Shown here: positions 6,234 to 53,341 of the stretch, one piece after another
Numbering within the stretch: position 1 is the first letter of the stretch
Layout of the letters: every line of letters begins with the position of its first letter
Source of the DNA: Eledone cirrhosa
Taxonomy: Eukaryota
Length of the DNA stretch: 64,000 nucleotides
Reading direction: 5' to 3'
Assembly (NCBI GenBank): GCA_964016885.1
Contig: OZ024743.1
Span: forward strand, 352,904,001 to 352,968,000
Position numbers and translations under genes: made by a program
The notes under the pieces: model-generated
The model's input: only the letters and a program-made list of their open reading frames with translations
What the model was told of the DNA's origin: nothing
Databases searched by the model: none

Positions 6234-6446
6234 GGCGACCTACGTAGTAAATCGTATCATCGTGAGCTCCGCAAAGGTTTGTTATTTTCAGTTGTTCAAA
6301 ATTGCCATTTATGGAAAATTTTATTGTTAACTGTATATAAGTGCACATACATTGTTATCTGAAAAGGACACCCAAAAAGATTGGGGCCTTGAGCCCAAAA
6401 TTTAAACTTTTATAATTATCAAACAAAAATTTTTCTTTGAAACATC

Positions 6447-8397
6447 ATGGCTGACTCAGAGTCACTCCTTTCTCACAAACTAACACCTCACACCGACACC
6501 ACCATTGTAAATATTTCTTCGTTTGCCAACACTAAAAATATAAGCAGTAGCAATATTTTAAATTTGTCTCAGGCAGACATTCATTTCCCGCCATTACCAA
6601 TGACTGCAGGTATTAAAGCCGCTACCACCCCCACCACCACCGCAACAACAGAAACAAAAGAAAAAAATAAATTAACTCGTGATATCGAAATGATTTCACC
6701 CAGAATGAACTCTTCCACACCGAACACCACTGACGCCACCACCACTACAACTGAAACTAAAATTAACAATAACAAAAATAACGATAACAACAACAGCAAC
6801 AATTAGAATAAGAAAACCACCCTGAGTTTTGCCAGAGTAGCAAAACAGTGCGAAGCATTTACGGTAACTCAGGAGGATTTAGAAAATGCCAAACAAATGG
6901 TAAAAAAAGATGGGTACAGGGTCAGCCTCCCCCCCCACCACCAAATAAAATGGAGCATCGGCGCCTATGCACCGTGTCGTATCGAACTATAAATGTAAAA
7001 TCGCGCCGAGTGGGACGGGCATCCGAGTCCCAAATCCAAAAAGCTTTGGGACATGTGTGGGCAAGAAAAACCCACACCAGACGTGGGCAGAAGTATGGAA
7101 CCGTGGACGTGTTCTTTGAAACACCAGAGGAGGCTAGAGAACACTCCATGGCCCCATTAAGAAGTGACGAATTCACACTCGTCCCAAGCTATTGTGGCCA
7201 GAGACTCGTAAAGATCAGGGTGATCCACGTTCCACCGGCCATCGAAATTCCCTGGCTAATAGCGGCCGTCCTCGCCGGCATCGAAGCCAACACAAAGATA
7301 ATAGCAATAGCAAAAGAAAAGCAGGAGAACTGGTCCGGATCTGGGATGGAGCTCCTGATCCAAGCGGACCAAAAAAGCATTGAGGAGATCCCAGAGGTAA
7401 TAGACCTCACTGACGGCAGCCACCTCACCGTAATTGTCGAGGGCAGAAGGCCTAGGTGTGTCGTTTGTGGTGAAGGAACCCACCTAAGGGCTTTCTGCCC
7501 TCAGGCTAAAAGGTTGAGGCCACCTCTCCTACCCACCCCAGTGACTCAACCATCAACACCACCAGTAGCAGAGATGGCAGCAACAACTGTAGCAGCAACA
7601 ACAGAAGCAACTATAACAGCAACAACCCCAGCAACAGTAGCAAAACCAACACCACCACCACCAGCAAAACCAACACCACCACCACCCAACGCTTAAGAAC
7701 TAGCCCCAGCGCCTACACCATCCACCACGCCACAACCAAAACTAACGCCTGTGGAGGATTTTCCACTCCCCGGCCTATCACAACTGGAGACAGATTGTGA
7801 CGACGAGGAGTGGGAAACGGTATCAGGAAAAAAAAAGAAACCAAAAAAGAAAAAATTCTCTTCCTTCCCCCTCCAAAAACAAAATACAGAGGGAAACAAA
7901 TAAATTAACAAACAAAAAAGTTAGGACAGATATGCCACCATCCACACCAGCATCACCAACCCCATCAACCCAAACACCAACACCATCACCATCAATAACA
8001 CCAACACCACCATCACCTACACCACAAAAGTCACCAAAATGCGAAACAGAAACAAACCCACAACAAACGCAAACAAAACAAAACAACCAAAACGATACAC
8101 ACTACACAGCATTAAATTTGAACAACAACCAATTATTACACTACATCCAACACAACACCAACCAGCATCACAGAAAAAGACTACACAACAACCCAAAAAT
8201 TCACACCACCTCCACACATACAAATCACTCGCATCACACAGAAAACGTACATGACACTAAAACAAAAATTAAACAAAGACATCGGAGACTTCCGACAAGC
8301 ACTCTCTAGGAGGATTTATAAGGACATCCTTCCTGAGGAGGCCACAAGCAGTGAAAAGGATGGAAAAACCGTCCTCCCCCTACGAGAAGTAAGGTAA
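6447..8397 (+). pseudogene. ORF1 type A (gag-like, CVVCGEGTHLRAFC knuckle), disrupted
   Basis: Stops at 6804 and 7694 plus homopolymer frameshifts. Collinear with the copy 5 ORF1. Confidence 0.85.
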
Positions 8398-8431
8398 GTG
8401 GTCTTTCCCATCTTTTCCACTCCTTTTCAAC

Positions 8432-11400
8432 ATGACCTCACTCAGAATAGGCAGCATAAATGCGCGTGGCTTGGGATCGTCATGGAAGCAGGGCCACCTG
8501 CTCAACGACCTCAGGTCACTAAACATAGATGTAGTGGCCATCAGCGAGACCAGAATCTCCGAAGCACGGGCCTTCGCACCGATCCTCGACGGCTACGATG
8601 TGTACGCATCTCCCAGCCGTCCGGGATCGGGGGGAGGAGTTGCTGTGCTTTTTCGGAGAGGTTCGGATCTTGCCATACGGGCCATCTTCCTGGACCCAGA
8701 AGGTAAGTTGGTGGTGCTGGACGTGACCAGCGGAGAAGGGCAAGCTTTCAGGCTAGTGGCCGTCTATGCCCCGACAGGAGCAGGGCGGCCTGATTTCTTC
8801 CGGCGTCTGGAAACCTTTCTTGGAACGTCCCGCTCTTTAGTGTTAGTGGGCGACTGGAACGGGATCTTAGATGCACGCTGGGATTGTGTGGGATTAGTGG
8901 ATAGGGAAGGAGGCTGCAAGAGTCTCACCAACCTGCTCAGGCGTTTTGAACTGTCTCACAGGTACCGAATGGATTTCCCGAATGTACCAATGTGGACTTG
9001 GACAAATCACATAGGGTCATCCAGATCATATCTAGATAGAGTATTTTGTAGGGAAATAGATAGGTCTAGCATAGGCTGTCCACAATTCAAGATAGTCAGC
9101 TACACGGACTACAAATTCGTGATCTGTGTGCTTGACTTAGATAGGCTTCATAGACGAGGACCCGGTTAATGGAAGCTAAACGCGTCCTTACAAGCGCGCA
9201 AGGCCTACAGAGACCGGATTAGCGAACTAGTTAAGCGGGCGTTGACGGGGGCCATCGTCAACAACAAGTGGTGGTTTGCTCTGAAAAGAGCAATTAGAAT
9301 AGAGTCCATTAGGTTTAGTAAGGCTTTAGCAATAGAGAAAAATAGAGCAGAGGGAGAATTAGTTAGAAAATTAGACGAGGCGCTTAGCAAAGGCATCGCG
9401 ATCGACGTACTTGCGGCGAAATTGGCCCTTGACCAATTCTTCAATGCAAAGCACGAAGGCTGTGTTGTCAGAGCTAGGGTACGTGCTCTCAGACACGAGG
9501 GGACGAAAGCCGTTCAATGGGCCCGAGTGGCGGAGGCGCGTCGTGGCAATAAAGCCACGATCCGGTCTTTGGTGGACCACGACGGGCGCATGCTACTCGA
9601 TCCCGGGCAAATGTGTGAAGCTTTTCAGCGACACTTCGCTCAACTGTTCGGGGGCAGTGGCGGGCCGGATCGAGGGATGGACTTTAGTGTCTACCTCGAC
9701 GGACTGCCGCGGCTTTCGGCCACTGAGGCGGAGTGTTGCGAAAAGCCGATAACAACCGCTGAAGTACGGGAGGCAATGACTGGCTGCACAAGGGGTAAAT
9801 CGCCTAGTTTGGATGGTCTGCCCTATTAACTTTACGTACAAATGCCAGACTGGTTCGGAGGCAACAGAACGGGAGAATTCCCAGCTCTGTGAGCCGAGGA
9901 GCGGTGGCGCTGCTGAGAAAGGATCCGAACAAGGGGGATAACATAGATAGTTTTAGGCCCATAACTCTGCTAAACACAGAGTTCAAGATTTTGGCCAAGG
10001 TGCTAGCAAAGAGGTTGGCGCTTGTCGTTGGTGGTCTGGTGGGAGAGGCACAGACATGCGCCATTCCCGACAGATCCATCCACGACAACCTCCACCTCAT
10101 GCGATACATCGTAGAGAGGGTAGCTAGGGAACCTGGCACGGGTGGGTCTTTGATCAATTTAGATCAGTCGAAAGCCTTCGATAGGGTTGACCATCGTTAC
10201 CTAGCGGCAGTCCTGAGGGCGGCTGGTTTTGGGCCCGTCTTCAGAGGCTGGATCGCTGCCATGCACAGCGACATCTGCTCTGTAGTGAGAGTGAACGGTC
10301 ACCTTTCGGAACCGTTCAACATCATGCGCTCGGTCCGCCAAGGATGTCCCCTCTCGTCCCTATTGTACGTATTGACTCTCGAGCCATTACTGCACAAACT
10401 GGAGACGTTGAGCGGGGTCCCGCGCGAACTAGGATGCGGAAGATCCGTGTCAGCATATGTGGACGATGTCACCGTAGTGGTGTCGAACGCCAAATACATC
10501 GAGGCGATCGGCACTACACTAAGAGAATACGAAGCGGTGACAGGAGCAATGATCAACCAGGAAAAGTCAGTGGGCCTGCAGCTCGGCACCTGGAGAGGCA
10601 GGTCCATGCCGTCCAACAGCGTCGTCGGGCGCTGGACGGATGGACCGGTTAAATTGCTAGGGGTCTGGTTCGGTCCAGACCTCCAGACGGACAAAAACTG
10701 GGACGAGGTGACGAGCAGGGTGGCTTCTCTCACCCAGAAATGGGCGGAGAGGAAGCTATCCCTGAAAGGTCGAGCGGAGGTGGCGAATGCGTACATCGCG
10801 TCCGTCATCTACTACCGCCTGACCGTCGTACCTTGTCCTAAGCCCCGCCTGACTGCGCCGGAGCGTTTGCTCTTACGCTTCTTGTGGAAGGGACGCGCTC
10901 CGATGGTCAGGCGGTCCATCTTTTGTCAACACCCGCTACGTGGAGGGCTGGGCATGCCGTGGCTCATGATGCGCAGACATGTGCTCAGGCTACGACATCT
11001 CCACCTCTTCCTCGACGGTGATCAGGTGTGGTCGCCGTTTGCTAGACATGTTTTTCCCCAGCTCGTCTCCTTGACGGAGCTGCAGTCCTGGGTCAAGCGA
11101 AGACCGAGAGGGAGCGCTTGGAGCCTGGAACGTCTTCAGGCGCTCACAGCCCTCGACCAATCGGGCAATGTGATCGGTGGAAACTCCACCTTGGCGTTCT
11201 ATAGGGGATTAGTGGAGGGGAAGAGCGACGACGTACTTGGAGAAACTCTAGGCGTCGACGAAAATCAACTAGCCAATCTCTTCGGAAGGACTTTCGGGCC
11301 GGGGCCTATGGACAACTTCCAGAAATCCCTGGCCTGACAGTGCTACCGAGGAGCTTTGCCAGTTCGGGATAAACTCTACAGGCATCGAGGTGCCGTCAGC

Positions 11401-11823
11401 CGGGCATGTCCGAGATGCGCGCAGGGCGACGAAACCGTCCTGCACGCACTCGTCCAGTGTCCGAGCATTGCTGACTTGTGGGTTTATGTCGAACACCTGC
11501 TGTCACGTGTAGGACGGATCCAGCTATCAGCTGAGTCCATCGTGAGGATTGCCCCGCCCTCTTCCTTTAGCCGGGAAGGGCAGGCAGTTTTTATCTCTCT
11601 GGTGGCCATGGCGAAAGAGATAGTATGGTGGACACGTTTGAAAGGGCTGAAGACGAGCACTTACCTCTTCGGTGATGCCCTGATTAACTTTTTCAAATTT
11701 CATTTGAAAAGGAAAATCAGGGTAGAGAGGGAAGTGCTCTCTTCCCAGCATTTTGTTGAAAGATGGGTGAGAGAAGCAAGTATGGCCCGAATGAATGGGC
11801 CTTCTCTGAGTATGTGTTTGTAA
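8432..11823 (+). pseudogene. ORF2 (APE endonuclease, RT, CCHC), disrupted
   Basis: SINARG, ISETR, VYAP, VGDWNG, SYLDR; RPITLLN, KAFDRVDH, RQGCPLS, YVDD; CPRC..HALVQC. Stops at 9167, 9827 and 11335 plus a short deletion. Confidence 0.93.
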
Positions 11824-12301
11824 ATTAAGGGTGGAAAACTGGGAGAGGGCACTTGCCCTGGTGGTCAGGGTCACTGTGGTCTTTTAACGGGCTTTCTCCA
11901 CAAATGTCCCTCGGAAGTTTCCCCCCTATTGGGTAATTTTTCTTTGTTATTTTATATCATCCTCTGTTTTTTTTAAACGCAGAAATGCCCATTTGTACCG
12001 TCCTGTATTGCCCTGTACTGTCCTTAATGTCTACTTTATGTAAACCCTTGTGGTTAATAAAGAAAACATTATTATTATTATTATTGAATGCCATGGTTGA
12101 CGGAGGCTCGGCTCTGTAAGGTATAGTAATTTTTAACCGTTAAAACAATTGTAAATTGTTTAAAACTTGAACCAAATTGTTGATAAAGACACCCTCCTCC
12201 TCGTGAGAGGGGTCTTTCTGTCCGTTATTTGGCCCTTCGGGGTTAAATAACCAGTTATTGGGGTTTTGTACCCAAAATTTCATTTTAAACAAAAAAACAG
12301 C

Positions 12302-14393
12302 ATGGCTACGAAAAAGAAATTTCATACGTCACTCCCACTCATTCCGTCTTCTTCTTCCTCAATCATCACTACAGCAGAGAGAAGATTGTCTCTCTCCCTC
12401 CCTTCTTTAAATGTCTCTCTCCCTCCCTTCTCTTTCGCAAGTGACGAAAGAAAAGAAAAGTCTCGTGCAAAGCGTGCAAGGTTTCTCCACGACAACGACG
12501 ACAGCGACGAAACAGGTGTGCGGGAAATACGAAAACCCAGTTCATTCGTCTGACGTCAGGAATAATAGCAGTAGCAGCCGTAATAACAACAGCAACAGTG
12601 ACAATGAAAACAACAGTAGCAGCCGCAACAGCATCACCAGCAGCATAAACAACAACAGCATTAGCAGCAGCAACACCAACAACAACCACAGCAACAGCGG
12701 CGGAGGCAGTAGTCGTAGTACCTGCAACAACAACAAAAGTACCAGCAGCTCTGACGACAACAACAACAGCAGAGAAAAAACCAATCTCATTTGCAGGTAT
12801 TGCGAAAAACTTGGAAACAATCCTCATAACAAATGAGGAATTAGAGGAAGCGAAGAAGATGGTGACAAAGAACGGACACCGAGCAATCTGCAAGGCAGCG
12901 GAAAATTTTTCGAAATCCAAGAGCACTGTACGGTCACGTACCGTACAGTAAGTACAAAATCCCGTAGGGTGGAAAGAGCCACAGAGGCCCAAATACAAAA
13001 AGCCTTGGGGTCTGTGTGGCAGCGGAAAACGCACATCACCCGAGGCAAGAAATATGCCACCGTAGACGTACTTTTTGCCACACCCCAGGAGGCAAAGGAC
13101 CAATCAGTAGTGACCCTAAGGAGCGAGGAAATGGTGTTGGTGCCCTCCTACTGCGGGCAAAAAATTGTGAGGGTCAAACTGACCCACGTCCCCCCCGGAA
13201 TGACCCCTTCTTAGCTGGCCGCGTCTGTCCTCGTCGGAATCGAGGACAAAACAACTGTACTGTAAGTACAGAAAAAAGTAAGAGAAGATTGGGTCGGCTC
13301 CTCCATTGAGATGCTAATCCAAACCAACCAGGAGTGCATCGAAGCTATCCCGGATGTGATAGACTTCGATAACGGCACTCAACTGCCCATAAGTGTTGAG
13401 GGCAAACGCCCGAAATGCTTTCGCTGTGGATCGAAGACTCACCTCAGGGCCTTCTGCAACGAGAAGACCCTGAGAAAGGAGAAAACCCCCCTCCTTTCGA
13501 ATCCGGCTCCACGGCTACCAGCAACAGGACAAGCGGCAACCAGGAACGATAGGCCCGTGGCACCCATACCCACTCCACGGAAATCAAAAACAGCAGCAGC
13601 AGTGGAAATATTAACAACAACAGCAATACCAAATGCAGCTGCAACAGAGACTCCAGTGCAAACATCACCAACAACAACAAGTGAAAGAGTGAAGCTGGTA
13701 CCCCTCCCCGACCTCACAGAATCAGACATGGAGTGTGAGGTGGGAGAGGGATGGCAAAAGGTCGTAAGAAGGCACAAACGCAGAAGCAGCGCATCGTCGC
13801 CTTTGAAAAGGGAGGAAAGAAATGAGAAAAGGGTAAAGTCTACTGCAAAGAGACCCACAGCAGCAACAACACCAACACCATCACCACCCACACTAGCGCC
13901 ACCATCACCACCGGCGACAACCCCACCGCCAACAACACCTTCAACACCACCACCACAAGCACCAACATCGCAAACACAACAACAAAACACACACACCCAG
14001 CAACAACGACAAGAAAATAGCAGAACCACACCCCACCCCCAGAAAAACAAATGCACGGCAATAAATACACACAACAAGAAACTAATGACTTACATAATTG
14101 AACACACAGACATTTCACAACAGGACTACATAATACCAGCACCAATCAAAACGCCAACTAACATAAGACTGCTAAAAATAGCACAGAAACAATACACAAA
14201 CATTAAAACGAAATTCCCCAACGCAGTTGGTGATTTCAGGGACCTAGGAGGAACCATCAATCGAAGAGTATACTCAGACATTCTCTTAGAAGAGCCGACG
14301 ACCAGCCGAAGGGACGATTCAACGGTCCCTTCACCAGACGATCAAGTGAAAAGGGATGTAAAAACCATCCCTCCTCTATCAAAAGTACGGTAA
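12302..14393 (+). pseudogene. ORF1 type B (CFRCGSKTHLRAFC knuckle), disrupted
   Basis: Collinear with the 575-aa open stretch of copy 4. Contains frameshifts and stops. Confidence 0.85.
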
Positions 14394-14428
14394 GTGGTCT
14401 TTCCCATCTTTTCCACTCTATTTTAAAC

Positions 14429-17400
14429 ATGACCTCACTCAGAATAGGCAGCATAAATGCGCGTGGCTTGGGGTCGTCATGGAAGCAGGGTCACCTGCTC
14501 AACGACCTCAGGTCACTAAACATAGATGTAGTGGCCATCAGCGAGACCAGAATCTCCGAAGCACGGGCCTTCGCACCGATCTTCGGCGGCTACGATGTGT
14601 ACGCATCTCCCAGCCGTCCTGGATCGGGTGGAGGAGTTGCTGTGCTTTTTCGGAGAGGTTTGGATCTCGCCATACGGGCCATCTTCCTGGACCCAGAGGG
14701 TAAGCTGGTGGTGCTGGACGTGACCAGCGGAGACGGGCAAGCTTTCAGGCTAGTGGCCGTCTATGCCCCGACAGGAGCAGGGCGGCCTGATTTCTTCCGG
14801 CGTCTGGAGACCTTTCTTGGAACGTCCCGCTCTTTAGTGTTAGTGGGCGACTGGAACGGGATCTTAGATGCACGCTGGGACTGTGTGGGATTAGCGGATA
14901 GGGGTGGAGGGTGCAAGAGCCTCACCAACCTGCTCAGGCGTTTTGAACTGTCTGACAGGTACCGATTGGATTTCCCGAATGTGCCAATGTGGACTTGGAC
15001 AAACCGCATAGGGTCATCCAGATCATATCTAGATAGAGTATTTTGTAGGGAAATAGATAGGTCTAGCATAGGCTGTCCACAATTCAAGATAGTCAGCTAC
15101 ACGGACCACAAATTCGTGATCTGTGTGCTTGACTTAGATAGGCTTCATAGACGAGGACCCGGCTACTGGAAGCTAAACGCGTCCTTACCAGCGCGCAAGG
15201 CCTACAGAGACCGGATTAGCGAACTAGTTAAGCGGGCGTTGACGGGGGCCATCGTCAACAACAAGTGGTGGTTTGCTCTGAAAAGAGCGATTAGAATAGA
15301 ATCGATTAGGTTTAGTAAGGCTTTAGCAATAGAGAAAAATAGAGCAGAGGGAGAACTAGTTAGAAAATTAGACGAGGCGCTTAGCAAAGGCATTGCGACC
15401 GACGTGCTTGCGGCGAAATTGGCCCTTGACCAATTCTTCAATGCAAAGCACGAAGGCTGCGTTGTCAGAGCAAGGGTGCGTGCTCTCAGACACGAGGGGA
15501 CGAAAGCCGTTCAATGGGCCCGAGTGGCGGAGGCGCGTCGTGGCAACAAAGCCACGATCCGGTCTTTGGTGGACCACGACGGGCGCATGCTACTCGATCC
15601 CGGGCAAATGTGTGAAGCTTTTCAGCGACACTTCGCTCAGCTGTTCGGGGGCAGCGGTGGGCTGGGTAGAGGGATGGACTTTAGTGTCTACCTCGACGGA
15701 CTGCCGCGGCTCTCGGCCACTGAGGCGAAGTGTTGCGAAAAGCCGATAACAGCCGCTGAAGTAAGGGAGGAAATGACTGGCTGCACAAGGGGTAAATCGC
15801 CTGGTTTGGATGGTCTGCCCTATGAACTTTACGTACAGATGCCAGACTTGTTCGGAGGCCTCTTGGCGGACGTCTACTGCAACTGGCAACAGAACGGGAG
15901 AATTCCCAGTTCTGTGAGCCGAGGAGCGGTGGCACTGCTGAGAAAGGATCCGAACAAGGGGGATAACATAGAAAATTTCCGGCCCATAACTCTGCTAAAC
16001 ACAGAGTTTAAGATTTTGGCCAAGGTGCTAGCAAAGAGGTTGGCGCTTGTCGTTAGTGGTCTGGTGGGAGAGGCGCAGACATGCGCCATTCCCGACAGAT
16101 CCATCCACGACAACCTCCACCTCATGCGATACATCGTAGAGAGGGTAGATAGGGAACCTGGCGCGGGTGGGTCCTTGATCAATTTAGATCAGTCGAAAGC
16201 TTTCGATAGGGTCGACCATCGTTACCTAGCGGCAGTCCTGAGGGCGGCTGGCTTTGGGCCCCTTCTTCAGAGGCTGGATCACTGCCATGCACAGCGACAT
16301 CTGCTCTGTGGTGAGAGTAAACGGTCACCTGTCGGAACCGTTCAACATCATGCGCTCGGTCCGCCAAGGATGTCCCCTCTCGTCCCTCTTGTACGTATTG
16401 ACTCTCGAGCCATTACTGCACAAACTGGAGACGTTGAGGGGAGTCCCGCGCGAACTAGGATGCGGAAGATCCGTGTCAGCATATGCGGACGATGTCACCG
16501 TAGTGGTGTCGAACGCCAAACACATCGAGGCGATCGGCACTACACTAAGAGAATACGAAGCGGTGGCAGGAGCAATGATCAACCAGGAAAAGTCAGTGGG
16601 CCTGCAGCTCGGCACCTGGAGAGGCAGGTCCATGCCGTTCAACAGCGTCGTCGGACGCTGGACGGACGGACCGGTTAAATTGCTAGGGGTCTGGTTCGGT
16701 CCGGACCTCCAGACGGACAAAAACCGGGACGAGGTGACGAGCAGGGTGGCTTCTCTCACCCAGAAATGGGCGGAGAGGAAGCTATCCCTGAACGGTCGAG
16801 CGGAGGTGGCTAACGCGTACATCGCGTCTGTCATCTGCTACCGCCTGACCGTCGTACCTTGTCCTAAGCCTCGCCTGACTGCGCTGGAGCGTTTGCTCTT
16901 TCGCTTTTTGTGGAAGGGACGTGCTCCGATGGTCAGGCGGTCCATCTGTTGTCAACACCCGCTACGTGGAGGGCTGGGCATGCCGTGGCTGATGATGCGC
17001 AGGCACGCGCTCAGGCTACGACATCTCCACCTATTCCTCGACGGTGATCAGGTGTGGTCGCCGTTTGCTAGGCGCGTATTTCCCCAGCTCGTTTCCTTGA
17101 CGGAGCTGCAGTCCTGGGTCAAGCGAAGACCGAGAGGGAGCGCCTGGAGACTGGAATGTCTTCAGGCGCTCACAGCCCTCGACCAATCGGGCAATGTGAT
17201 CGGTGGAAACTCCACCTCGGCGTTCTATAGAGGATTAGTGGAGGGTAAGAGCGACGACGTACTTGGGGAAACTCTAGGCGTCGACGAAAATCAACTAGCC
17301 AATCTCTTCGGAAGGACTTTCGGGCCGGGGCCTATGGACAACTTCCAGAAATCTCTGGCCTGGCAGTGCTACCGAGGAGCCTTGCCAGTTCGGGATAAAC

Positions 17401-17849
17401 TCTACAGGCATGGAGGTGCCGTCAGCCGGGCATGTCCGAGATGCGCGCAGGGCGACGAAACCGTCCTGCACGCACTCGTCCAGTGTCCGAGCATTGCTGA
17501 CTTGTGGGTTTATGTCGAACACCTGCTGTCACGTGTAGGACGGATCCAGCTGTCAGCTGAGTCCATCGTGAGGATTGCCCCGCCCTCCTCCTTTAGCCGG
17601 GAAGGGCAGGCAGTTTTTATCTGTCTGGTGGCCATGGCGAAAGAGATAGTATGGTGGACACGTTTGAAAGGGCTGAAGACGAGCACTTACCTCTTCGGTG
17701 ATGCTCTGATTGACTTTTTCAAATTTCATTTGAAAAGGAAAATCAGAGTAGAGAGGGAAGTGCTCTCTTCCCAGCATTTTGTTGAAAGATGGGTGAGAGA
17801 AGCAAGTATGGCCCGAATGAATGGGCCTTCTCTGAGTATGTGTCTGTAA
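14429..17849 (+). pseudogene. ORF2 APE-RT with a single frameshift near 16260
   Basis: 749-aa and 531-aa overlapping ORFs together cover APE, RT (YADD) and CCHC. Confidence 0.94.
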
Positions 17850-18096
17850 ATTAAAGGTGGAAAACTGGGAGAGGGCACTTGCCCTGGTGGTCAGGGCCAC
17901 TGTGGTCTTTTAATGGGCTTTCTCCACAAATGTCCCTTGGAAGTCTCCCCCCTATTGGGGAATTTTTCTTTGTTATTTTATTTCAACCTCTGTTTTTTTA
18001 CACGCAGAAATGCCCATTTGTACCGTCCTGTATTGTCCTGTACTGTCCTTAATGTCTACTTTATGTGAACCCTTGTGGTTAATAAAGAAAACATTA

Positions 18097-33479: not shown

Positions 33480-33513
33480 GTGGTCTTTCCCATCTTTTCC
33501 ACTCCTTTTCAAC

Positions 33514-37003: not shown

Positions 37004-37245
37004 ATTAAAGGTGGAAAACTGGGAGAGGGCACTTGCCCTGGTGGTCAGGGCCACTGTGGTCTTTTAATGGGCTTTCTCCACAAATGTCCCTTGGAAGTCT
37101 CCCCCCTATTGGGGAATTTTTCTTTGTTATTTTATTTCAACCTCTGTTTTTTTACACGCAGAAATGCCCATTTGTACCGTCCTGTATTGTCCTGTACTGT
37201 CCTTAATGTCTACTTTATGTGAACCCTTGTGGTTAATAAAGAAAA

Positions 37246-37291
<46 letters not shown>

Positions 37292-41313: not shown

Positions 41314-44300
41314 GAATGCTATGGTTGACGGAGGCTCGGCTCTGTAAGGTATTGTAAATTTTGACCGCTATAACAATTGTAAATTGTTTAAAACTTTAAC
41401 CAAATTGTAGACAAAAATACCCTCCTTCTCGTGAGAGGGGTCTTTCTGCCCGTTATTTGGCCCTTCGGGTTAAATAACCGCTTATTGGGGTTTTGTGCCC
41501 AATATTTATTTTAAACAAAAAAAAAATGGCTGCGAAAAAGAATTTTCATAGGTCACTCCCACTCATTCCGTCTTCTTCTTTCTCAATCGTCACTACAACA
41601 GACAGAAGGTTGTCTCTCTCCCTCCCTTCTCTAAATGTGTCTCTCTCCCTCCCTTCTCTTTCGCAAGCGACGCCAGAAAAGAAAAATCACGTGCAAGGCG
41701 TGCAAAATTTCTCCACGACGACGACGACAACGACGAAAAAGGTGTGCGGGAAATACGAAAACCCATTTCATTCGTCTGACGTCAGGAATAATAGCAGTAG
41801 CAGCCGTAATAACAGCAGCAGCAGCAACAGTGACAAGGAAAACAACAGTAGCAGCTGCAACAGCATCAGCATCAGCATAAACAACAACAGCATTAGCAGC
41901 AACAGCAACAACAACAGCAGCAGCAGCAACAACAACAACAACAACAACCACAGCAACAGCGGCGGCGGCAGTAGTCGTAGTACCTGCAGCAACAACAACA
42001 AAAGTAACAGCAGCTCTGACGACAACAACAACAACAACAACAGCAGCAGCAAAGAAAAACCAATCTCATTTGCAGGTATCGCAAAGAACCTGGAAACCAT
42101 CCTCATAACAAATGAGGAATTAGAGGAAGCGAAGAAGATGGTGACGAAAACCGGACACCGAGCAATCTGCAAGGCAGCCGAAACATTTTTCGAAACTCAA
42201 CAGCACTGTACGGTCACGTACCGTGCAGTAAGCACAAAATCCCGTAGGGTTGAAAGAGCCACAGAGGCTCAAATACAAAAAGCCTTAGGGTCTGTGTGGC
42301 AGCGAAAAACGCACATCACCCGAGGCAAGAAATATGCCACCGTAGACGTGCTTTTTGCCACACCCAGGAGGCAAAGGCTCAATCCTTAGTGACCCTAAGG
42401 AGCGAGGAAATGGTATTGGTGCCCTCCTACTGCGGGCAAAAAATTGTGAGGGTCACACTGACCCACGCCCCCCCCCCCCCCCCCCGGGATGGCCCCTTCT
42501 TGGTTGGCCGCGTCTGTCCTCGTCGGAATCGAGGACAAAACAACTGTACTGCAAGTACAGAAAAAAGTAAGAGAAGATTGGGTCGGCACCTCCATTGCGA
42601 TGTTAATCAAAACCAACCAGGAGTGCATCGAAGCTATCCCGGATGTGATAGACTTCGATAACGGCACTCAACTGCCCATAAGTGTTGATGGAAAACGCCC
42701 AAAATGCTTTCGCTGTGGATCGAAGACTCACCTCGGGGCCTTCTGCAACGAGAAGACCCTGAGAAAGGAGAAAACCCCCTCCTTCCGAAACCGGCTCCAC
42801 GGCTACCAGAAACAGGACAAGCGGCAACCAGGAACGATAGGTCCGTGGCACCCATACCCACGCCACGGAAATCAAGAACAGCAGCAGCAGTGGAAGTATT
42901 AACAACAACAGCAATACCAAATGCAGCTGCAACAGAGACTCCAGTGCAAACATCACCAACAACAACAAGTGAAAGAGTGGAGCTGGTACCCCTCCCCGAC
43001 CTCACAGAATCAGACATGGGGTGTGAGGTGGGAGAGGGATGGCAAAAGGTCGTAAGAAGGCACAAACGCAGAAGCAGCGCATCATCGCCTTCGAAAAGGG
43101 AGGAAAGAAATGAAAAAAGGTAAAAGCTACTGCAAAGAGACTCACAGTAGCAACACCACCAACACCATCACCACCGGCGACAACCCCACCGCCAACAACA
43201 ACAACACCTTCAACACCACCACCACAAGCACCAACATCGCAAACACAACAACAAAACACACACACCCTGCAACAACGACAAGAACAGCAGAACCACACCC
43301 CACCCCCAGAAAAACAAATGCACGGCAATAAATACACACAACAAGAAACTAATGACTTACATAATTGAACACACAGACATTTCACAGCACGACTACATAA
43401 TACCAGCACCAATCAAAACGCCAAATAACATAAGACTGCTAAAAATAGCACAGAAACAATACACAAACATTAAAACGAAATTCCCCAACGCAGTTGGTGA
43501 TTTCAGAGACCTAGGAGGGACTCTCAACCGGAGAGTATATTCGGACATACTCATAGAAGAGCCGACGACCAGCCGAAGAGATGATTCAACGGTCCCTTCA
43601 CCAGACGATCAAGTGAAAAGGGATGGAGAAACCATCCTTCCTCTACGAAAAGTACGGTAAGTGGTCTTTCCCATCTTTTCCACTCTATTTTAAACATGAC
43701 CTCACTCAGAATAGGCAGCATAAATGCGCGTGGATTGGGGTCGTCATGGAAGCAGGGTCACCTGCTCAACGACGTCAGGTCACTAAACATAAATGTAGTG
43801 GCCATCAGCGAGACCAGAATCTCCGAAGCACGGGCCTTCGCACCGATCTTCGGCGGCTAAGATGTGTACGCATTTCCCAGCCGTCCTGGATCGGGGGAAG
43901 GAGTTGCTGTGCTTTTTCGGAGAGGTTTGGATCTCGCCATACGGGCCATCTTTCTGGACCCAGAGGGTAAGTTGGTGGTGCTGGACGTGACCAGCGGAGA
44001 CGGGCAAGCTTTCAGGCTAGTGGCCGTCTATGCCCCGACAGGAGCAGGGAGGCCTGATTTCTTCCGGCGTCTGGAGACCTTTCTTGGAACGTCCCGCTCT
44101 TTAGTGTTATTGGGCGACTGTAACGGGATCTTAGATGCCCGCTGGGACTGTGTGGGATTAGCAGATAGGGGTGGAGGGTGCAAGAGCCTCACCAACCTGC
44201 TCAGGCGTTTTGAACTGTCTGACAGGTACCGATTGGATTTCCCCAACCTGCTCAGGCGTTTTGAACTGTCTGACAGGTACCGATTGGATTTCCCGAATGT

Positions 44301-47300
44301 GCCAATGTGGACTTGGACAAATCGCATAGGGTCATCCAGATCATATCTAGATAGAGTATTTTGTAGGGAAATAGATAGGTCTAGCATAGGCTGTCCACAA
44401 TTCAAAATAGTCAGCTACACGGACCACAAATTCGTGATCTGGGCTACTGGAAGCTAAACGCGTCCTTACCAGCGCGCAAGGCCTACAGAGACCGGATTAG
44501 CGAACTAGTTAAGCGGGCGTTGACGGGGGCCATCGTCAACAACAAGTGGTGGTTTGCTCTGAAAAGAGCAATTAGAATAGAGTCCATTAGGTTTAGTAAG
44601 GCTTTAGCAATAGAGAAAAATAGAACAGAGAGAGAATTAGTTAGAAAATTAGACGAGGCGCTTTGCAAAGAAATCGCGACCGACGTACTTGCGGCGAAAT
44701 TGGCCCTTCACCAATTCTTCAATGCAAAGCACGAAGACTGAGTTGTCAGAGCTAGGGTGCGTGCTCTCAGATACGAGGGGACGAAAGCCGTTCAATGGGC
44801 CCTAGTGGTGGAGGCGCGTCGTGGCAACAAAGCCACGATCCGGTCTTTGGTGGACCACGATGGGCGCATGCTACTCGATCCCGGGCAAATGTGTGAAGCT
44901 TTTCAGCGACACTTCGCTCAGCTGTTCGGGGGCAGCGGTGGGCCGGGTCGAGGGATGGACTTTAGTGTCTACCTCGACGGACTGCCGCGGCTCTCGGCCA
45001 CTTAGGCAGAGTGTTGCGAAAAGCCGATAACAGCCGCTGAAGTACGGGAGGCAATGACTGGCTGCACAAGGGGTAAATCGCCTGGTTTGGATGGTCTGCC
45101 CTATGAACTTTACGTACAGATGCCAGACTTGTTCGGAGGCCTCTTGGCGGACGTCTACTGCAACTGGCAACAGAACGGGAGAATTCCCAGCTCCGTGAGC
45201 CGAGGAGCGGTGGCGCTGCTGAGAAAGGATCCGAACAAGGGGGATAACATACATAATTTTAGGCCCATAACTCTGCTAAACACAGATTTCAAGATTTTGG
45301 TCAAGGTGCTAGCAAAGAGGTTGGCGCTTGTCGTTGGTGGTCTGGTGGGAGAGGCACAGACATGCGCTATTCCCGACAGATCAATCCACGACAACCTCCA
45401 CCTCATGCGATACATCACAGAGAGGGTAGCTAGGGAACCTGGCACGGGTGGGTCTTTGATCAATTTAGATCAGTCGAAAGCCTTCGATAGGGTCGACCAT
45501 CGTTACCTAGAGGCAGTCCTGAGGGCGGCTAGCTTTGGGCCCGTCTTCAGAGGCTGGATCGCTGCCATGCACAGCGACATCTGCTCTGTAGTGAGAGTGA
45601 ACGGTCACCTTTCGGAACCGTTCAACATCATGCGCTCGGTCCGCCAAGGATGTCCCCTCTCGTCCCTATTGTACGTATTGACTCTCGAGCCATTACTGCA
45701 CAAACTGGAGACGTTGAGGGGGGTCCCGCGCGAACTAGGATGCGGAAGATCCGTGTCAGCATATGTGGACGATGTCACCGTAGTGGTGTCGAACGCCAAA
45801 CACATCGAGGCGATCGGCACTACACTAAGAGAATACGAAGCGGTGACAGGAGCAATGATCAACCAGGAAAAGTCAGTGGGCCTGCAGCTCGGCACCTGGA
45901 GAGGCAGGTCCATGCCGTCCAACAGCGTCGTCGGGCGCTGGGCGGACGGACCGGTTAAATTGCTAGGGGTCTGGTTCGGTCCAGACCTCCAGACGAACAA
46001 AAACTGGGACGAGGTGACGAGCAGGGTGGCTTCTCTCACCCAGAAATGGGCCGAGAGGAAGCTATCCCTGAAAGGTCGAGCGGAGGTGGCTAACGCGTAC
46101 ATCACGTCCGTCATCTACTACCGCCTGACCGTCGTACCTTGTCCTAAGCCCCGCCTGACTGCGCTGGAGCGTTTGCTCTTTCGCTTCTTGTGGAAGGGAC
46201 GCGCTCCGATGGTCAGGCGGTCCATCTGCTGTCAACACCCGCTACGTGGAGGGCTGGGCATGCCGTGGCTGAAGATGCGCAGACACGCGCTCAGGCTACG
46301 ACATCTCCACCTCTTCCTCGACGGTGATCAGGTGTGGTCGCCGTTTGCTAGACACGTTTTCCCCCAGCTCGTCTCCTTGACGGAGCTGCAGTCCTGGGTC
46401 AAGCGAAGACCGAGAGGGAGCGCTTGGAGACTGGAATGTCTTCAGGCGCTCACATCCCTCGACCAATCGGGCAATGTGATCGGTGGAAACTCCACCTTGG
46501 CGTTCTATAGGGGATTAGTGGAGGGTAAGAGCGACGACGTACTTGGAGAAACTCTAGGCGTCGACGAAAATCAACTAGCCAATCTCTTCGGAATGACTCT
46601 CGGGCCGGGGCCTATGGACAACTTCCAGAAATCCCTGGCCTGGCAGTGCTACCGGGGTGCTTTACCATTTCGGGATAAACTCTACAAGCATGGAGGTGCC
46701 GTCAGCCGGGCATGTCCGAGATGCGCACAGGGCGACGAAACCGTCCTGCACGCATTCGTCCAGTGTCCGAGCATTGCTGACTTGTGGGTTTATGTCGAAC
46801 ACCTGCTGTCACGTGTAGGACGGATCCAGCTATCAGCTGAGTTCATTGTGAGGATTGCACCGCCCTCCTCCTTTAGCCGGGAAGGGCAGGCAGTTTTTAT
46901 CTGTCTGGTGGCCATGGCGAAAGAGATAGTATGGTGGACACGTTTGAAAGGGCTGAAGACGAGCACTTACCTCTTCGGTGATGCCCTGATTAACTTTTTC
47001 AAATTTCATTTGAAAAGGAAAATCAGGGTAGAGAGGGAATTGCTCTCTTCCCAGCATTTTGTTGAAAGATGGGTGAGAGAAGCAAGTATGGCCCGAATGA
47101 ATGGGCCTTCTCTGAGTATGTGTCTGTAAATTAAAGGTGGAAAACTGGGAGAGGGCACTTGCCCTGGTGGTCAGGGCCACTGTGGTCTTTTAATGGGCTT
47201 TCTCCACAAATGTCCCTTGGAAGTCTCCCCCCTATTGGGGAATTTTTCTTTGTTATTTTATTTCAACCTCCGTTTTTTTACACGCAGAAATGCCCATTTG

Positions 47301-47371
47301 TACCGTCCTGTATTGTCCTGTACTGTCCTTAATGTCTACTTTATGTAAACCCTTGTGGTTAATAAAGAAAA

Positions 47372-47423
<52 letters not shown>
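41314..47423 (+). mobile_element. Tx1-like copy 7, type B variant
   Basis: Starts gaatgctatgg. ORF1 remnant 41526-43660, ORF2 43696-47129 (last 691 aa open), tail (ATT)17. Confidence 0.93.
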
Positions 47424-50400
47424 GGTCGCTGAAGCAAATGGACGTACTATCGTGAGCTCGAGTAAGTTTGTTTTTTCTACGGTTTGAAATACGTTTGTTA
47501 TTAATATTTTTGTTTCAAACGGGGAATAAGACTTCAGTCTTTGCCCCCAAGAAAGGAAGGACTCCCCATTATATTTGGACCTTTTGCCCCAAAACCTTTG
47601 TGTGTTTAAAAGAAAATGTTATCGAAAAAAAAAAACATGGCGGAGCCACGCCCCCAACTTTGAGTTTGCTGTCTAGCGACAGCGAGTCAAACGTCGAGGC
47701 TGATAACGCTGCTCCTCCCGCAACAATTTTAAAATGTAACAACACATCAGGCAATATCGCCAACACCAGCACCAACAACAGTGAGAACACTAATATGAAT
47801 AAAAATGACAACAGCAGCCACAGCGACATTACCAAAAACAGTAAAAAAAAAAACAGCACCAGCAACAATGACAGCAAAACCAACAACAGCTGCAATAATG
47901 ACAACAACACCAACAACAGAAAGAACAACAACAAAGACAACAATATCAACAAGAGTGACAACCAGAACAGCAGCATATCCTCGACAACAGACACCCAACT
48001 ACCACATAAGAAGCCGCTGTGGGAATTACTACCACCAATCCCTGCTACCTTTACACCGGTGAGCAAATCAATGCCAGTAGCACTACAACTTAAAGCGGCA
48101 CTGAATCATCTATTGACACTCCCCCCGGTCGACATTTGCGTGTATACAGATGTATCAACATGCGACGGTACAACCGATGACGGTGCCGGTCTCGTAATCA
48201 TCCAAAATTAAGAGTTAGTTCACGAGTGGCACGCGCTGACGGGCGCTCATAGCAGTTCCTTTCATTCCGAACGAATTGCATTCAAACAAGCCCTCCTATG
48301 GTTACAGGCAGACATCAGCTGGGAGTCCTTCAATGTCATCTGTGACTGCAAGTCGCTGGTTCAAGCAGTCCACAACCCATTCCCCCATGACCCTTTCATT
48401 ACCGAGCTGCAAGGGATCGCTAAAAAAATCACAAAGGGGAGAACCTTAGCAGCTATCTGGGTCCCGGGGCACTGCAGCATCAAAGGGAATGAACTGGCGG
48501 ACGCCCAGGCGAAACAAGGCTCAGCATCTACTCAACTGGAAAGTTCAATCGATGCCGCCACCCGACGCGCCGTCATTCGCCGGGAATTTCGCCCACCACC
48601 GATCCAGCATCAACATCTACAATCAGTCTTTAGCCGCCACCCAAATGAAGAGAATGAGCAAACTCTCTCCAAAGCAGATAGGAACCATCTCGTCCGCTTC
48701 CGCAGTGGACATCACACGTCATTAAGGAGATGGCTCCATATGATCGGCCAAGCAGAAATCAACACATGCCGTCTGTGCGGAAAGGAGGAAGAATCCTCCG
48801 AACATCTTTGGATGAGATGTCCGGCCTTGATGGTGGATTGTTATCACCACCAACTCGGCTCCAGCATGGATGAACTCGTGCGTCTCCCACACGCCAGTCT
48901 AGCGCTACTGAGGGTAATCCTCAGGCGCCTGTGGTAAGAAATAAACAGCAGCAGCAACAACAACAATGATAACAACAGCAACAGCGGTGACAGTGGCAGT
49001 GGTGGTGACAACAGCAGCAGCAGCCACTTGAACAGTAGCACCAGCAGCGCAATGTCAAACTACCACACGAACATTTTCCGTCATTAGAAGGATCGGCAAG
49101 CATCACCAACACCTCCATCTTGGTAGCAACAACAACATCAGCAACAGCCATAAAGTGCCCAGGGAGCAGCAACTGTAACAGCAGCAACACAGAAGAAAAC
49201 AAACTAACAAGACCACCACCACCACCACCAATAACAACAACAACAACAAAGACAAGACTAGCGATGAGTCAGCCCAGCAGACGACAACGATATCGTTCGC
49301 TAAAGCGGCAAACAATGTCGAATGGGTACACATCACCAACGCGGAGATAAAGCATCCCAAGATCTTGATTAAAAAGACCGGACACAGGGTAAGTCTCACC
49401 CGCCCAGCTAACACAATGAAAAACAAGCTTTTGTGTTCGGTCAGTTATCGCACAATTGGTGTAAAATCGTACCGAGTCGAACGGGCAACGAAGTCCCAGG
49501 TCCAAAGGGCTATGGATGCTGGGCACAGAAACCATACATAGCCCGAGGATCGAGGTATGGCACTGTGGATGTGCTCTTCGCTACTCCGGAAGAGGCCAGA
49601 GCACACTCCATTGCGCCACTCCGCAGTGATGAAATAATAAAGACGCCCACATACTGCGGCTAGAGAGTCGTCAGGGTTCGAGTAATCCAGGTTCTTCCCT
49701 CAGTGAAGATGGCGTGGCTGAGAGCGGCTGTCCTCGCTCACGTTGAGGATTCAACAACTATCCTCGACGTCATGCGAATAAGACAGGAGAATTGGACAGG
49801 GTTGGGGATGGAGCTAATCATCCAAGCAGACGATGAGAGCATCGAGGCCATCCCTGATGTAATAGACCTGGACGACGGCAGCCATCTACCCGTGACTGTC
49901 GAAGGTAGGCTCCCAAGGTGTCATGGGTGCGGTGACAAGACGCACCTTAAGGCCTTCTACCCCAAACTCACCAAGACGGGCACGCCCCCCTCCCTCTCCC
50001 TACGCTGTGGACAAACCGACTGGAGTGGACAAAACAACAAATAGCACAGTGGCAGAAGAAAATTCACTATCACCAGCAACAAAAACACCATCTCCTCCAC
50101 CATCAACAGAACCAATGGAGAGCATGCCCCTTCCCGATATTGCTAAATCGAACAAGGAGTGAGATGAGGCCGAAGAATGGAAAACCATCCCAGCAAAAAA
50201 AAAGGAAGAACTCCCTACCTTCGCCCCCCCCCCCCCCCCCAAAAAAAAAGAGGAAGAAAGAAACCCCAAAAAGAAAATGAAAATGGCCCCACCTCCTCCA
50301 CCACCATCAACAGCCACATCCCCACAACCACCGCAACCACAAAACCACCAACACCACCGCCGCCACCATTAGCATCTACCTCACCGTCACCTCCAACAAC

Positions 50401-53341
50401 ACCACAGCAAACACAGAAAGCACCAACACCCCAACAGCAGACACAATACACAGCCATAGACACACACATAAAAATAATAGAAATCACCCTAAAAAATTAC
50501 ATGACATTAAAAAAAATGTTCCCCACGTCAATTGGAGACTACCGAGGGAACATCACTAAAAGAATATTCACAGACATTCTCGTGGAGAAACCCGCCACTG
50601 GTCGGAGGGATGGATCACCCATCCCCTTCCTAAAAAAGAGCCACAGGTAAAGTTTTTTTTTTTACTTTTCTCCTCTCACTTGTTTTTTTCCTATCCTAGC
50701 CAACATGGCTTCTCTCAGGATAGGTAGCATAAATGCACGTGGCCTGGGGTCGTCTTGGAAGCAGGGCCACCAGCTCAGGTCGCTAAACATAGATGTGGTG
50801 GCCATCAGCGTGACCAGAATCTCCGAAGCACGGGAATTCGCACCCATTTTCGGCGGCTACGAGGTGTACACATCTCCAAGCCACCTCGGATCGGGGGGGG
50901 GGGGGGCTGTGTTGTTCCGGAGAAGTCTGGATCTCGAAATACTTGGACCCAGAAGGTAAGTTGGTGGTGCTGAGCGTGACCAGCGGAGAAAGGCAAGCTT
51001 TCAGGCTAGTGGCCGTCTATTCCCCACCAGGAGCAAGACGGCCTGACTTCTTCCGGCGTCTGGAGATCTTTTTTGGAACGTCCGGCTCTTTAGTGTTAGT
51101 GGGCGACTGGAACGGGATCTTAGATGCACGCTGGAACTGTGTGGGATTAGCGGCGCGGATAGGAGAGGAGGGTGTAAAAGCCTCGCAAACCTGCTCAGAC
51201 CTTTCCAACTGTCTGACAAGTACCGTTTGGATTTCCCAAATGTGCCAATGTGGACTTGGACAAACCTTATCGGGTCATGAAGATCATATCTAGATAGGGT
51301 ATTTTGTAGGGAAATAGATAGGTCTAGCATAGGCTGTCCACAATTCAAGATAGTCAACTACACGGACCACAAATTCGTGATCTGTGTGGTTGACTTAGAT
51401 AGGCTTCATAGACAGGGACCCGGATACTGGAAGCTAAACGCGTTGTTAACAGCGTGCAAAGCTTACAGAGACCGGATTAGCGAATTAGTTAAGCGGGCAT
51501 TGACGGGGGCCATCGACAACAAAAATGGTGGTTGGCCCTGAAAAGAGCGATTAGAATAGAGTCCATTAGGTTTAGTAAGGCGTTAGCAATGGAGAAAAAT
51601 AGAGCAGAGGGAGAACTAGTTAGCTAATTAGACGAGGCGCTTAGTAAAGGCATCGCCATCGACGTGCTTGCGGCGAAATTAGCCCTCGACCAATTTTTCA
51701 ATGCAAAGCACGAAGGCTGTGGTGTCAGTGCTAGGGCGCGTGCTCTCAGAAACGAGCGGACGAAAGCCGTTCGATGGGTCCGAGTGGCTGAGACACGTCG
51801 TAGCAACAAAGCCACGATCCGGTCATTGGTGGACCATGACGGGCGCATGTTACTCGATCCCGGGAAAATGTGTGCGGCTTTTCAGCGACACATTGCTCAG
51901 CTGTTCGGGGGCAGCGGCGGGCCGGATCGCGGGATGGACTTTAATGCCTACCTCGACGGACTGCCGCGGCTCTCAGCCACTGAGGCGGAGTGTTGCGAAA
52001 AGCCGATAGCAGCCGCTGAAGTACGGGAGTCAATGACTGGCTGCACAATGGGTAAATCGCCTGGTTTGGATGGTCTGCCCTACGAACTTTACGTACATAT
52101 GCCAGACTTGTTCGGAGACCTCTTGGCGGACGTCTATTGCAACTGGCAGCAGAACGGGAGAATTCCCAGCTCTGTGAGCCGACGAGCGGTGCCGCTGCTG
52201 AGAAAGGATCCGAACAAGGGGGGTAACATAGATAATTTCAGGCCCATAATTCTGCTAAACACAGAGTTCAACATTTTGGCCAAGGTGCTAGCAAAGAGGT
52301 TGGCGCTTGTCGTCGGCGGTCTGGTGGGAGAGGCGCAGACATGGGCTATTCCAGCCAGATCCATCCTCGACAACCTCCACCTCATGCGATACATCGTAGA
52401 GAGGGTAGCTAGGGAACCTGGAACGGGTGGGTCCTTGATCAATTTAGATCAGTCGAAAGCCATCGTTATCTGGCGGCAGTCCTGAGAGCGGCAGGCTTTG
52501 GGCCCGTCTTCAAAGGCTGGATCGCTGCCATGCACAGCGACATCTACTCTGTGGTGAGAGTGAACGGTCACCTTTCGGAACCGTTCAACATCATGCGCTC
52601 GGTCCGCCAAGGATGTCCCCTCTCGTCCCTCTTGTACGTATTGACTCTCGAGCCATTACTGCACAAACTGGAGACGTTGAGGGGAGTCCCGCGCGAACTG
52701 GGATGCGGAAGAACTGTGTCAGCATATGCAGACGACGTCACCCTAGTGGTGTCGAACGCCAAACACATCGAGGCGATCGGCACTACACTAAGAGAATACA
52801 AGGCGGTGACAGGAGCAAAGATCAACCAAGAAAAGTCGGTGGGCCTGCAACTCGGCACCTGGAGAGACAGGTCCATGCCGTCGACAGCATCGCCGGGTGC
52901 TGGACGGATAGGCGGACCGGTTAAATTGCTAGGGGTCTGGTTCGGTCCGGACCTCCAGGCGGACAAAAGCTGGGACTAGGTGACGAGCAGGGTGGCCTCT
53001 CTCACCCAGAAATGGGCCGAGAGGAAGCTATCCCTGAAAGGTCGAGTGGAGGTGGCGAACGCGTACATCGCGTCCGTCATCTACTACTGCCTGACCGTCG
53101 TGCCTTGTCTTAAGCCTCACCTGACTCTGCTGGAACATTTGCTCTTTTGCTTTTTGTGGAAGGGACGTACTCCGATGGTTAGGCGGTCCATTGCTGTCAA
53201 CACCCGCTACGCGGAGGGCTGGGCATGCCGTGGTTGATGATGCACAGACATGCGCTCAGGCTACGGCATCTCCACCTCTTCCTCGACGGTGATCAGGTGT
53301 GGTTGCCGTTTGCTAGAAGTGTGTTTCCCCAGCTCGTCTCC
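47424..53341 (+). mobile_element. Tx1-like copy 8, type C 5' cassette, older and 3'-truncated
   Basis: Starts ggtcgctgaagc. ORF1 remnant 47637-50650 is homologous to A/B (LCSVSYRT..VERAT, CHGCGDKTHLKAF). ORF2 runs from 50705 (MASLRIGSINARG) and ends abruptly at 53341. Confidence 0.9.
47976..48943 (+). mobile_element. 5'-truncated I-group (Nimb/Ingi/I-like) LINE fragment with RNase H and CCHC, nested in the type C ORF1
   Basis: VYTD..GAG, SSFHSE, ICDCKSLV, WVPGHCSIKGNELAD, RFRSGH, CRLC..ESSEHLWMRC. Apparent 10-bp TSD aacagcagca at 47966-47975 and 48944-48953. Confidence 0.88.

Follow-up and report, generated by a model that had tools for sequence, protein, structure and literature searches.

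Different histories of the ORF1 and ORF2 halves in an array of (ATT)n-associated LINEs from Eledone cirrhosa

We analysed a 64,000-nt window of the cephalopod Eledone cirrhosa (contig OZ024743.1; all coordinates are positions in this window), which holds an array of long interspersed nuclear elements (LINEs). Self-comparison and translation showed seven copies of an L1/Tx1-group LINE with full-length starts, arranged head-to-tail on the + strand, and these seven copies of one locus are the dataset of this study. Three types, A, B and C, are distinguished by their cassette, that is, the 5' untranslated region (5'UTR) plus open reading frame 1 (ORF1). The 5' ends that a sequence-only reading of this DNA had proposed for all seven were confirmed, each lying directly behind an (ATT)n tract. 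In order along the array, the copies and one related fragment are:

6234..12067, + strand: copy A1; 5'UTR 6234-6446, broken ORF1 6447-8397, spacer, ORF2 from 8432, 3'UTR
12086..18092, + strand: copy B1; ORF1 12302-14393, ORF2 from 14429, 21-unit ATT tail
19921..25219, + strand: copy A2; A cassette, ORF1 ATG 20131, stop 22085; several ORF2 deletions
25238..31253, + strand: copy B2; ORF1 ATG 25452, stop 27548, ORF2 from 27586
31275..37246, + strand: copy A3; ORF1 ATG 31484, stop 33477, ORF2 33514, 15-unit tail
40486..41298, + strand: fragment F; 5'-truncated 3' piece immediately upstream of B3, with 88% identity to the A/B copies
41314..47372, + strand: copy B3; B cassette, ORF1 ATG 41526, stop 43658, 17-unit tail
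47424..53341, + strand: copy C; third cassette, ATG 47637, stop 50648, 54-nt spacer, ORF2 from 50705

A3 is the best-preserved copy, and its ORF2 is open over 1019 codons, which cover the apurinic-type endonuclease (APE), the reverse transcriptase (RT) and the zf-RVT domain. The first stop in the ORF2 of A1 is codon 246, and this copy is flanked by (ATT)12 upstream and (ATT)6 downstream. C is 3'-truncated and ends at 53341, and its odd N-terminus is partly the product of another insertion:

48000..48945 (approximate ends), + strand: piece of a different LINE with RNase H and zf-RVT, lying as an insertion in the low-complexity N-terminal part of C ORF1

The copies have the L1-group layout of a 5'UTR, two ORFs with a short spacer and a 3'UTR ending in a simple-repeat tail. 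Pfam searches on ORF2 identified Exo_endo_phos (the APE domain), RVT_1 and zf-RVT, and the best solved relative of ORF2 is human L1 ORF2p (E 5.5e-54, against 1e-20 for R2). The ORF1 core (B2, 25920..26660, + strand) is predicted to form two RNA-recognition-motif (RRM)-like domains followed by one CCHC knuckle, which is a type I ORF1 (model pLDDT 90). Foldseek matches of this model were tandem-RRM proteins at E about 1e-4, with a middling VIA Z of up to 8.2, and a CX2CX4HX4C motif is present in both A and B ORF1. Pfam gave no Transposase_22 match on ORF1, and its MBD matches there fell below cut-off and were disregarded. Type I ORF1 is linked with Tx1-like elements of non-mammalian animals (PMC5203782) and also occurs in other clades, such as CR1/L2 (PMC4120745). 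The closest named relatives come from Argonauta hians for ORF2 (71%) and from Octopus species for ORF1, which makes an octopod host likely; no named Tx1 reference was among the matches listed for the element's proteins. With the A ORF1 core as query, a word-based protein search over 880 candidates gave no match at E 0.001; of 542 relatives in an ORF1 profile search, the best 150 all stayed below 65% identity to A, B and C, and a metagenome scan with the endonuclease confirmed none of 150 pattern matches.

All seven full-length 5' ends lie directly behind (ATT)n tracts of 5-17 units, and all seven complete 3' ends are followed by (ATT)n of 5-21 units, in a window that contains 11 perfect ATT tracts of at least four units. 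The element is likely an octopod L1/Tx1-group LINE that inserts into (ATT)n tracts. The tracts that precede B copies (12068, 25220, 41299) are short, with 5-6 units, against 7-12 before A copies and 17 before C.

Codon comparison showed that the ORF1 and ORF2 halves of these elements have different histories. The ORF1 cores are homologous yet diverged, with protein identities of 0.48-0.52 (A/B, about 51%), 0.57-0.60 (A/C) and 0.47-0.50 (B/C), as the sequence-only reading had noticed. The proportion of silent differences (pS) in the ORF1 core, from codon counts, is 0.735-0.77 in all 15 between-type pairs and thus saturated, and 36-40 of 50-56 fourfold-degenerate sites differ between A and B. 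By contrast, spacer, ORF2 and 3'UTR together are 95.0-96.9% identical in all nine A/B pairs, ORF2 pS is 0.061-0.098 and only 24-41 of 482-501 fourfold-degenerate sites differ. ORF2 therefore has about a tenth of the silent divergence of ORF1, before saturation correction, and the silent difference between A and B ORF2s equals that between copies of one type. Within types, pS is 0.08-0.14 in ORF1 and 0.04-0.10 in ORF2 (about 0.01 for B1/B2); because these values are close to each other, ORF1 has no intrinsically faster silent clock. A comparison of the ORF2 tree and silent divergence with those of ORF1, set beforehand, gave ORF2 trees that ignore cassette type and silent divergence that does not match. 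The pS contrast and the incongruent trees support, for A and B, the proposal that several 5'UTR-ORF1 modules share one endonuclease-RT pool.

The proposal of one near-identical ORF2 for all types held for A and B but not for C, whose ORF2 is 89.8-91.0% identical to theirs in nucleotides, with a pS of 0.18-0.19 and a different spacer. C shows the same contrast less tightly, with a saturated ORF1 on this ORF2, and its place as an equal member of the present pool is unsupported. Within cassettes, the ratio of amino acid-changing to silent differences (pN/pS) is 0.26-0.43 for A and 0.22-0.40 for B (Fisher p 0.03 to 4e-5 in five of six pairs). Most of these changes are silent, and both cassettes were therefore carried forward by functional elements during a similar period. 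Differences between ORF2 copies likewise show purifying selection (pN/pS 0.16-0.45). B1 and B2 are 98.5% identical with neutral differences (pN/pS 1.1-1.5), and derive from one source or from local duplication.

Analysis of the six A/B copies revealed that ORF2 itself is a mosaic. Only 8 of 97 informative ORF2/3'UTR sites split by ORF1 type, and six of the nine columns fixed between A and B lie within the first 320 of 3870, no more than 320 nt from the stop of ORF1. When the 95 biallelic sites were paired, 27% of the pairs proved incompatible; the positions of compatible sites are clustered (0 of 5000 permutations, at three window sizes). Triplet scans found a breakpoint in five of eight triplets (B1 twice, B3 twice, B2 once; 0 of 2000 permutations each). 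In segment trees, A2 stands apart from A1 and A3 in all four segments, and B1 groups with B2 (97-100) and then, at the 3' end, with A3 and B3 (91); B1 resembles B2 until its last ~370-630 nt and A3/B3 from there on. The 3' end of B2 is A2/F-like. B3 is B1/B2-like over the first ~1.6 kb of ORF2 and A-like downstream, leaving B1/B2 after the endonuclease in the trees. Three copies share a nearly identical end of about 450 nt:

17640-18092, + strand: end of B1
36794-37246, + strand: end of A3
46920-47372, + strand: end of B3

Across these last 453 columns, A3, B1 and B3 have one private change against 13.6 expected (Poisson p 2e-5), so that they carry fresh 3' ends on older bodies. Recombination of ORF2 is thereby shown, and the exchange was repeated rather than single. 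ORF2s also contain tandem duplications, one of 81 nt in A3 (36564-36732), which lies near a mapped breakpoint at 36645 and has microhomology at its joint, and one of 51 nt in B3 (44192-44294).

At the ORF1/ORF2 junction, A/B identity is 54-58% over the C-terminal domain of ORF1, climbs to 73-80% across the final 14 codons and reaches 96-98% from GTAAGT on. The identity switch that had been placed in the last ORF1 codons, at GTAAGT, is thus real for A and B and takes two steps. The spacer measures 34/35 nt in A/B and 54 nt in C, which has GTAAAG instead of GTAAGT at its ORF1 stop. Moreover, all three B copies carry the same 42 extra bases, a second homologue of the terminal 14 codons, so that the junction holds two homologous 14-codon blocks:

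14307..14390, + strand: junction scar of B1
27464-27547, + strand: junction scar of B2
43574-43657, + strand: junction scar of B3

The first block is the old one and is identical at 16-21 of 42 nt to A, C and the second block (13-52 of 20000 shuffles), whereas the second block is A-like, with 29-34 of 42 nt identical to A. In our reading, the scar combines the old C-terminus of B with a captured A-type end behind it, which would have been joined out of register before the downstream exchanges.

A donor-like site overlaps the ORF1 stop in every copy (8394, 14390, 22084, 27547, 33476, 43657, 50647), and an acceptor-like CTCAG lies 14 nt inside ORF2 after a pyrimidine tract. These sites delimit a candidate intron, seen for instance in A3:

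33476..33527, + strand: candidate intron of A3; ORF1 stop and 34-nt pyrimidine-rich spacer, GTAAGT...CTCAG, 52 nt

Excision of 52 (A), 53 (B) or 72 nt (C) would join ORF1 to ORF2 in frame, though the spacers differ in frame. All seven copies retain the unspliced form, and the literature search gave nothing relevant to a spliced ORF1-ORF2 fusion among the matches listed. We give such splicing at most a slim chance of producing a fusion protein.

The 5'UTRs measure 209-216 nt in all seven copies. They had been described as largely unalignable, which stands only for B and C, where homology was not detectable (79 and 240 of 500 shuffles as good). A and C align above every shuffle (0 of 500 for both pairs), and A and B align weakly (6 and 1 of 500 shuffles as good), sharing one 24-nt motif whose spacing to the ATG is similar. 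The 5'UTRs look diverged in place, not recruited, most clearly for A and C. The accompanying statement that mammalian L1 recruits 5'UTRs only sequentially is contradicted by mouse and horse lineages that have different 5'UTRs, coexist and recombine; coexistence is also described for early primate L1 (PMC3600994, PMC5872511).

The copy order A-B-A-B-A-B-C is real in having no neighbours of equal type, but 18 of 140 possible orders do as well (p 0.13), and we rejected the alternation as a signal. When only the four direct contacts are counted, 40 of 140 orders lack equal neighbours; the B1/A2 gap of 1.8 kb and the A3/B3 gap of 4 kb are filled with other elements. Duplication of a whole A-B unit was also rejected, A1/A2 being 94-95% identical against 98.5% for B1/B2. 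HeT-A-style co-mobilisation of an upstream 3' end with B is unsupported, with F only 83-89% identical to the 3' ends of A1 and A2.

Part of A3 is contained in 20 public sequencing runs from 15 studies, none of them recorded as RNA. Four runs (X1, X4, X5 and X8) were compared with B2 and the A3 cassette, in whose coordinates positions are given. Summed contig depth in these runs is not copy number, and run letters come from 40 of 1289 variants. X1 is deep on both cassettes (B bins 128,000-198,000; A bins 93,000-291,000). X5, which bears another organism label, has B bins of 102,000-384,000 and A values of 116-1,245 in six bins free of simple repeats. In each cassette, X5 carries fixed letters particular to it (26051, 26991, 31894, 32368), and its A signal is therefore not carry-over from X1's organism. 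Apparently, one host has both cassettes in abundance and another has them in unequal amounts. The ORF2 letters at 28563 and 30014, common to A1-A3 and B3, are frequent in X1 and below 1% in the B-dominated X5, which fits B3 having taken them from an A-linked pool. In X4, one contig (record 10) runs from B ORF1 into the spacer with 14 differences in 1516, and another (record 16) covers the A ORF1 end and continues past it; since contigs reach the spacer from both cassettes, they argue against a junction artefact. Both cassettes are also present in X4 and X8, with identities of about 98-99% but a low depth (about 3-44) that trace DNA could give, and these two runs enter no statement on species range. 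In X1 and X5, endonuclease depth exceeds the summed depth of the A and B cassettes, a possible sign of further cassette types or of related families.

The reading we favour, at roughly even confidence, is that two anciently diverged 5'UTR-ORF1 cassettes sit on one recombining ORF2/3'UTR pool, and that the exchange is driven by a target that equals the element's own tail. An element arriving at (ATT)n would come to lie immediately downstream of a homologous 3' end that is oriented alike. Its new cDNA would pair with the resident upstream copy and replace the 3' part of that copy while sparing its cassette, leaving a seamless chimera of an old 5' and a new 3' end. Pairing would stop at ORF1 because the cassettes, about 60% identical, are too diverged. 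B would once have gained an A-type block (the last 14 codons, spacer and ORF2) through the out-of-register joint, with later exchanges placed further downstream; C may have exchanged longer ago or may be an older dead copy, and local gene conversion probably contributes as well. The cDNA-replacement route fits the single private change in the 3' ends of A3, B1 and B3. These copies also carry the three longest tails (15-21 ATT units, against 5-7 in A1, A2, B2 and F), although this pattern was seen post hoc and the type of the neighbour confounds it. An RNA/DNA-heteroduplex model and the notion of a young 3' end recruiting an old 5' end are discussed for rodent L1 (PMC3600994).

Several points weigh against this reading. 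The evidence comes from seven copies of one locus, and we infer the recombination route rather than demonstrate it. Three of the eight triplet scans (A2 twice, A1 once) found no breakpoint, and there is no steady 3'-to-5' gradient, A3/B1 pS being 0.06-0.14 throughout ORF2. The fresh 3' ends could also stem from conversion or assembly polishing. The scar could equally have arisen by internal duplication and subsequent conversion. All seven ORF2s have a premature stop, so residents repaired from the 3' end would often still be dead. Finally, B1 and B2 differ neutrally and have letters in common that are rare in X1 (28629, 28820, 28825), a sign of local duplication or conversion.

Gene conversion and unequal crossing-over at the DNA level could homogenise ORF2 in head-to-tail arrays and spare the cassettes as too diverged, with no retrotransposition needed. 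We regard this as unlikely, although all copies are direct repeats in one array, B1 and B2 combine 98.5% identity with neutral differences and shared rare letters, and the neighbours A2 and B2 have nine 3'-part sites in common. Many of the A2/B2 letters also occur in the outgroup F and may be ancestral, the A-B unit was not duplicated whole, and the purifying selection on ORF2 differences indicates that the mosaics passed through active elements. Copy choice, in which RT switches between A-type and B-type RNAs during insertion whatever the resident copy, has in our estimate a small chance. It is favoured for most mouse L1 mosaics (PMC3600994), and it agrees with the activity of both cassettes over the same span (within-type pS 0.08-0.14, pN/pS <0.45) and with the microhomology-type tandem duplications in A3 and B3, which fit a jumping RT. 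By itself, however, it leaves unexplained why three bodies of different age and type have nearly identical last 450 nt.

Comparably improbable is one capture, in which a foreign or old B cassette was joined once to an A-type ORF2 (compare mouse Tf/Gf and canonical Ty1), followed by sister families with few conversions. The same single scar in all three B copies, the two ORF2 haplotypes A1/A3 and B1/B2, which are 0.09 apart, and the persistence of A-linked spacer letters speak for it. Against this, within-cassette diversity (pS 0.08-0.14) is as deep as that of the whole A+B ORF2 pool (0.04-0.10), congruence is broken by A2, by B3 and by B1 or B2, and C requires an additional capture. A tandem array of 95% identical repeats with near-identical 3' ends in three copies invites an assembly or polishing artefact that blends repeats; this is very improbable, given that every junction is present in three copies with private changes and that X4 contigs cross from the ORF1 ends of both B and A. 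The account by separate old families, with ORF2 merely under stronger constraint, agrees with the purifying selection on ORF2 but is refuted by the fourfold-site counts, by the spacer and 3'UTR that A and B also have in common and by the incongruent trees; we leave it practically no probability.

The array is interspersed with LINEs of a second, unrelated group, with a restriction-like endonuclease (RLE):

18156..19896, - strand: pieces of RLE-type LINEs in the gap from B1 to A2, with (TAA)n at their end
1-1884, 2086-5897 and 37502-38654, - strand: RLE-type relatives; RT and C-terminal restriction-like endonuclease motif (PD..D), ending in (TAA)n

We take these elements to be R4/Dong-like; Dong targets (TAA)n. 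The RLE group shares its microsatellite with the (ATT)n-associated LINE, though in the opposite orientation, and provides targets. One RLE element has a 451-nt direct duplication (95%; 18545-18995 and 19442-19896) that ends exactly at the ATT tract before A2, and a perfect (CTT)46 tract (1616-1754) lies in the 5' region of a - strand RLE element. Elsewhere in the window are SINE-/MITE-like repeats of ~160-190 nt, 88-94% identical and in both orientations (37292-37490, 55875-56061, 58799-58953, 58947-59114, 59480-59648), and other broken RT fragments with weak RVT_1 matches (53542-55293, +; 63234-63998, -).

Several known systems resemble this one in part. The closest in kind are the microsatellite-targeting Tx1 families Kibi (TC)n, Koshi (TTC)n and the crocodilian (TTCC)n/(TTTC)n elements, which are likewise two-ORF APE-RT elements with simple-repeat targets and tandem insertions. 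Here, the target (ATT)n is the element's own tail and the host is a cephalopod; the excerpt of the source consulted for comparison does not mention cassette exchange for those families (PMC4494074). In behaviour, the recombinants of mouse Tf/Gf and the Ty1/Ty1' elements of yeast come closest. Mouse L1MdTf/Gf and A and horse L1 likewise have coexisting 5' ends, breakpoints near the ORF2 5' end and joins of young 3' to older 5' parts, but their 5'UTRs are non-homologous and the 3' half of their ORF1 is very conserved, whereas here the 5'UTRs are of the same length, with A and C homologous, and the ORF1 core has 47-60% protein identity with saturated silent sites (PMC3600994, PMC5872511). Ty1 and Ty1' place two divergent RNA-packaging genes (gag) on a recombining pol, with exchanges near the gag/pol boundary and inside pol, and their content varies among host lineages, as with the cassettes here. 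Unlike the present LINE, Ty1 is a long-terminal-repeat element with particles and co-packaged RNAs, and its gag difference is tied to a tested restriction factor (PMC7055915). In CR1/L2, ORF1 (also type I) and ORF2 histories differ as well, but this reticulation is ancient and between clades, whereas ours is recent, inside one ORF2 family and visible at the nucleotide level (PMC4120745). The Drosophila HeT-A/TART/TAHRE elements also form head-to-tail arrays of non-LTR subfamilies, but they belong to the Jockey clade, are telomeric and tend to neighbour themselves, whereas the present copies are mixed with opposite-strand RLE elements and bear no telomeric mark (10.1101/782904).

Coexisting 5'UTRs and breakpoints near the ORF2 start (mouse L1), gag swapping (Ty1) and clade-level ORF1 reticulation are thus already known. 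The unusual features here are how deeply the ORF1s on one ORF2 pool have diverged and a self-tail target that could drive exchange. Our literature search, whose scope excluded most subscription papers and Repbase reports, found no description of this element or of saturated ORF1 types on one ORF2.

More tentatively, and in our view possible rather than probable, the LINE may be a recombining population with long-lived ORF1/promoter "alleles", in which the self-tail target would bring newly arriving ORF2s together with the cassettes already in place. These cassettes, whose age exceeds silent-site saturation, might be kept by frequency-dependent host silencing and fluctuate between related species (A is deep in X1 and hundreds of times shallower than B in X5). 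For L1, a niche hypothesis has been put forward to account for coexisting 5' ends, and its validation is described as still outstanding (PMC5872511).

LINE families are defined and dated by their RT, and the one RT family here conceals at least two, probably three, RNA-binding/promoter modules. These modules are as far apart as unrelated families, and RT-based libraries would therefore miss them. One enzyme pool with two very different cassettes is a natural test of host silencing or licensing via the 5' module, and a target equal to the element's own tail offers a concrete, countable recombination route for elements without particles.

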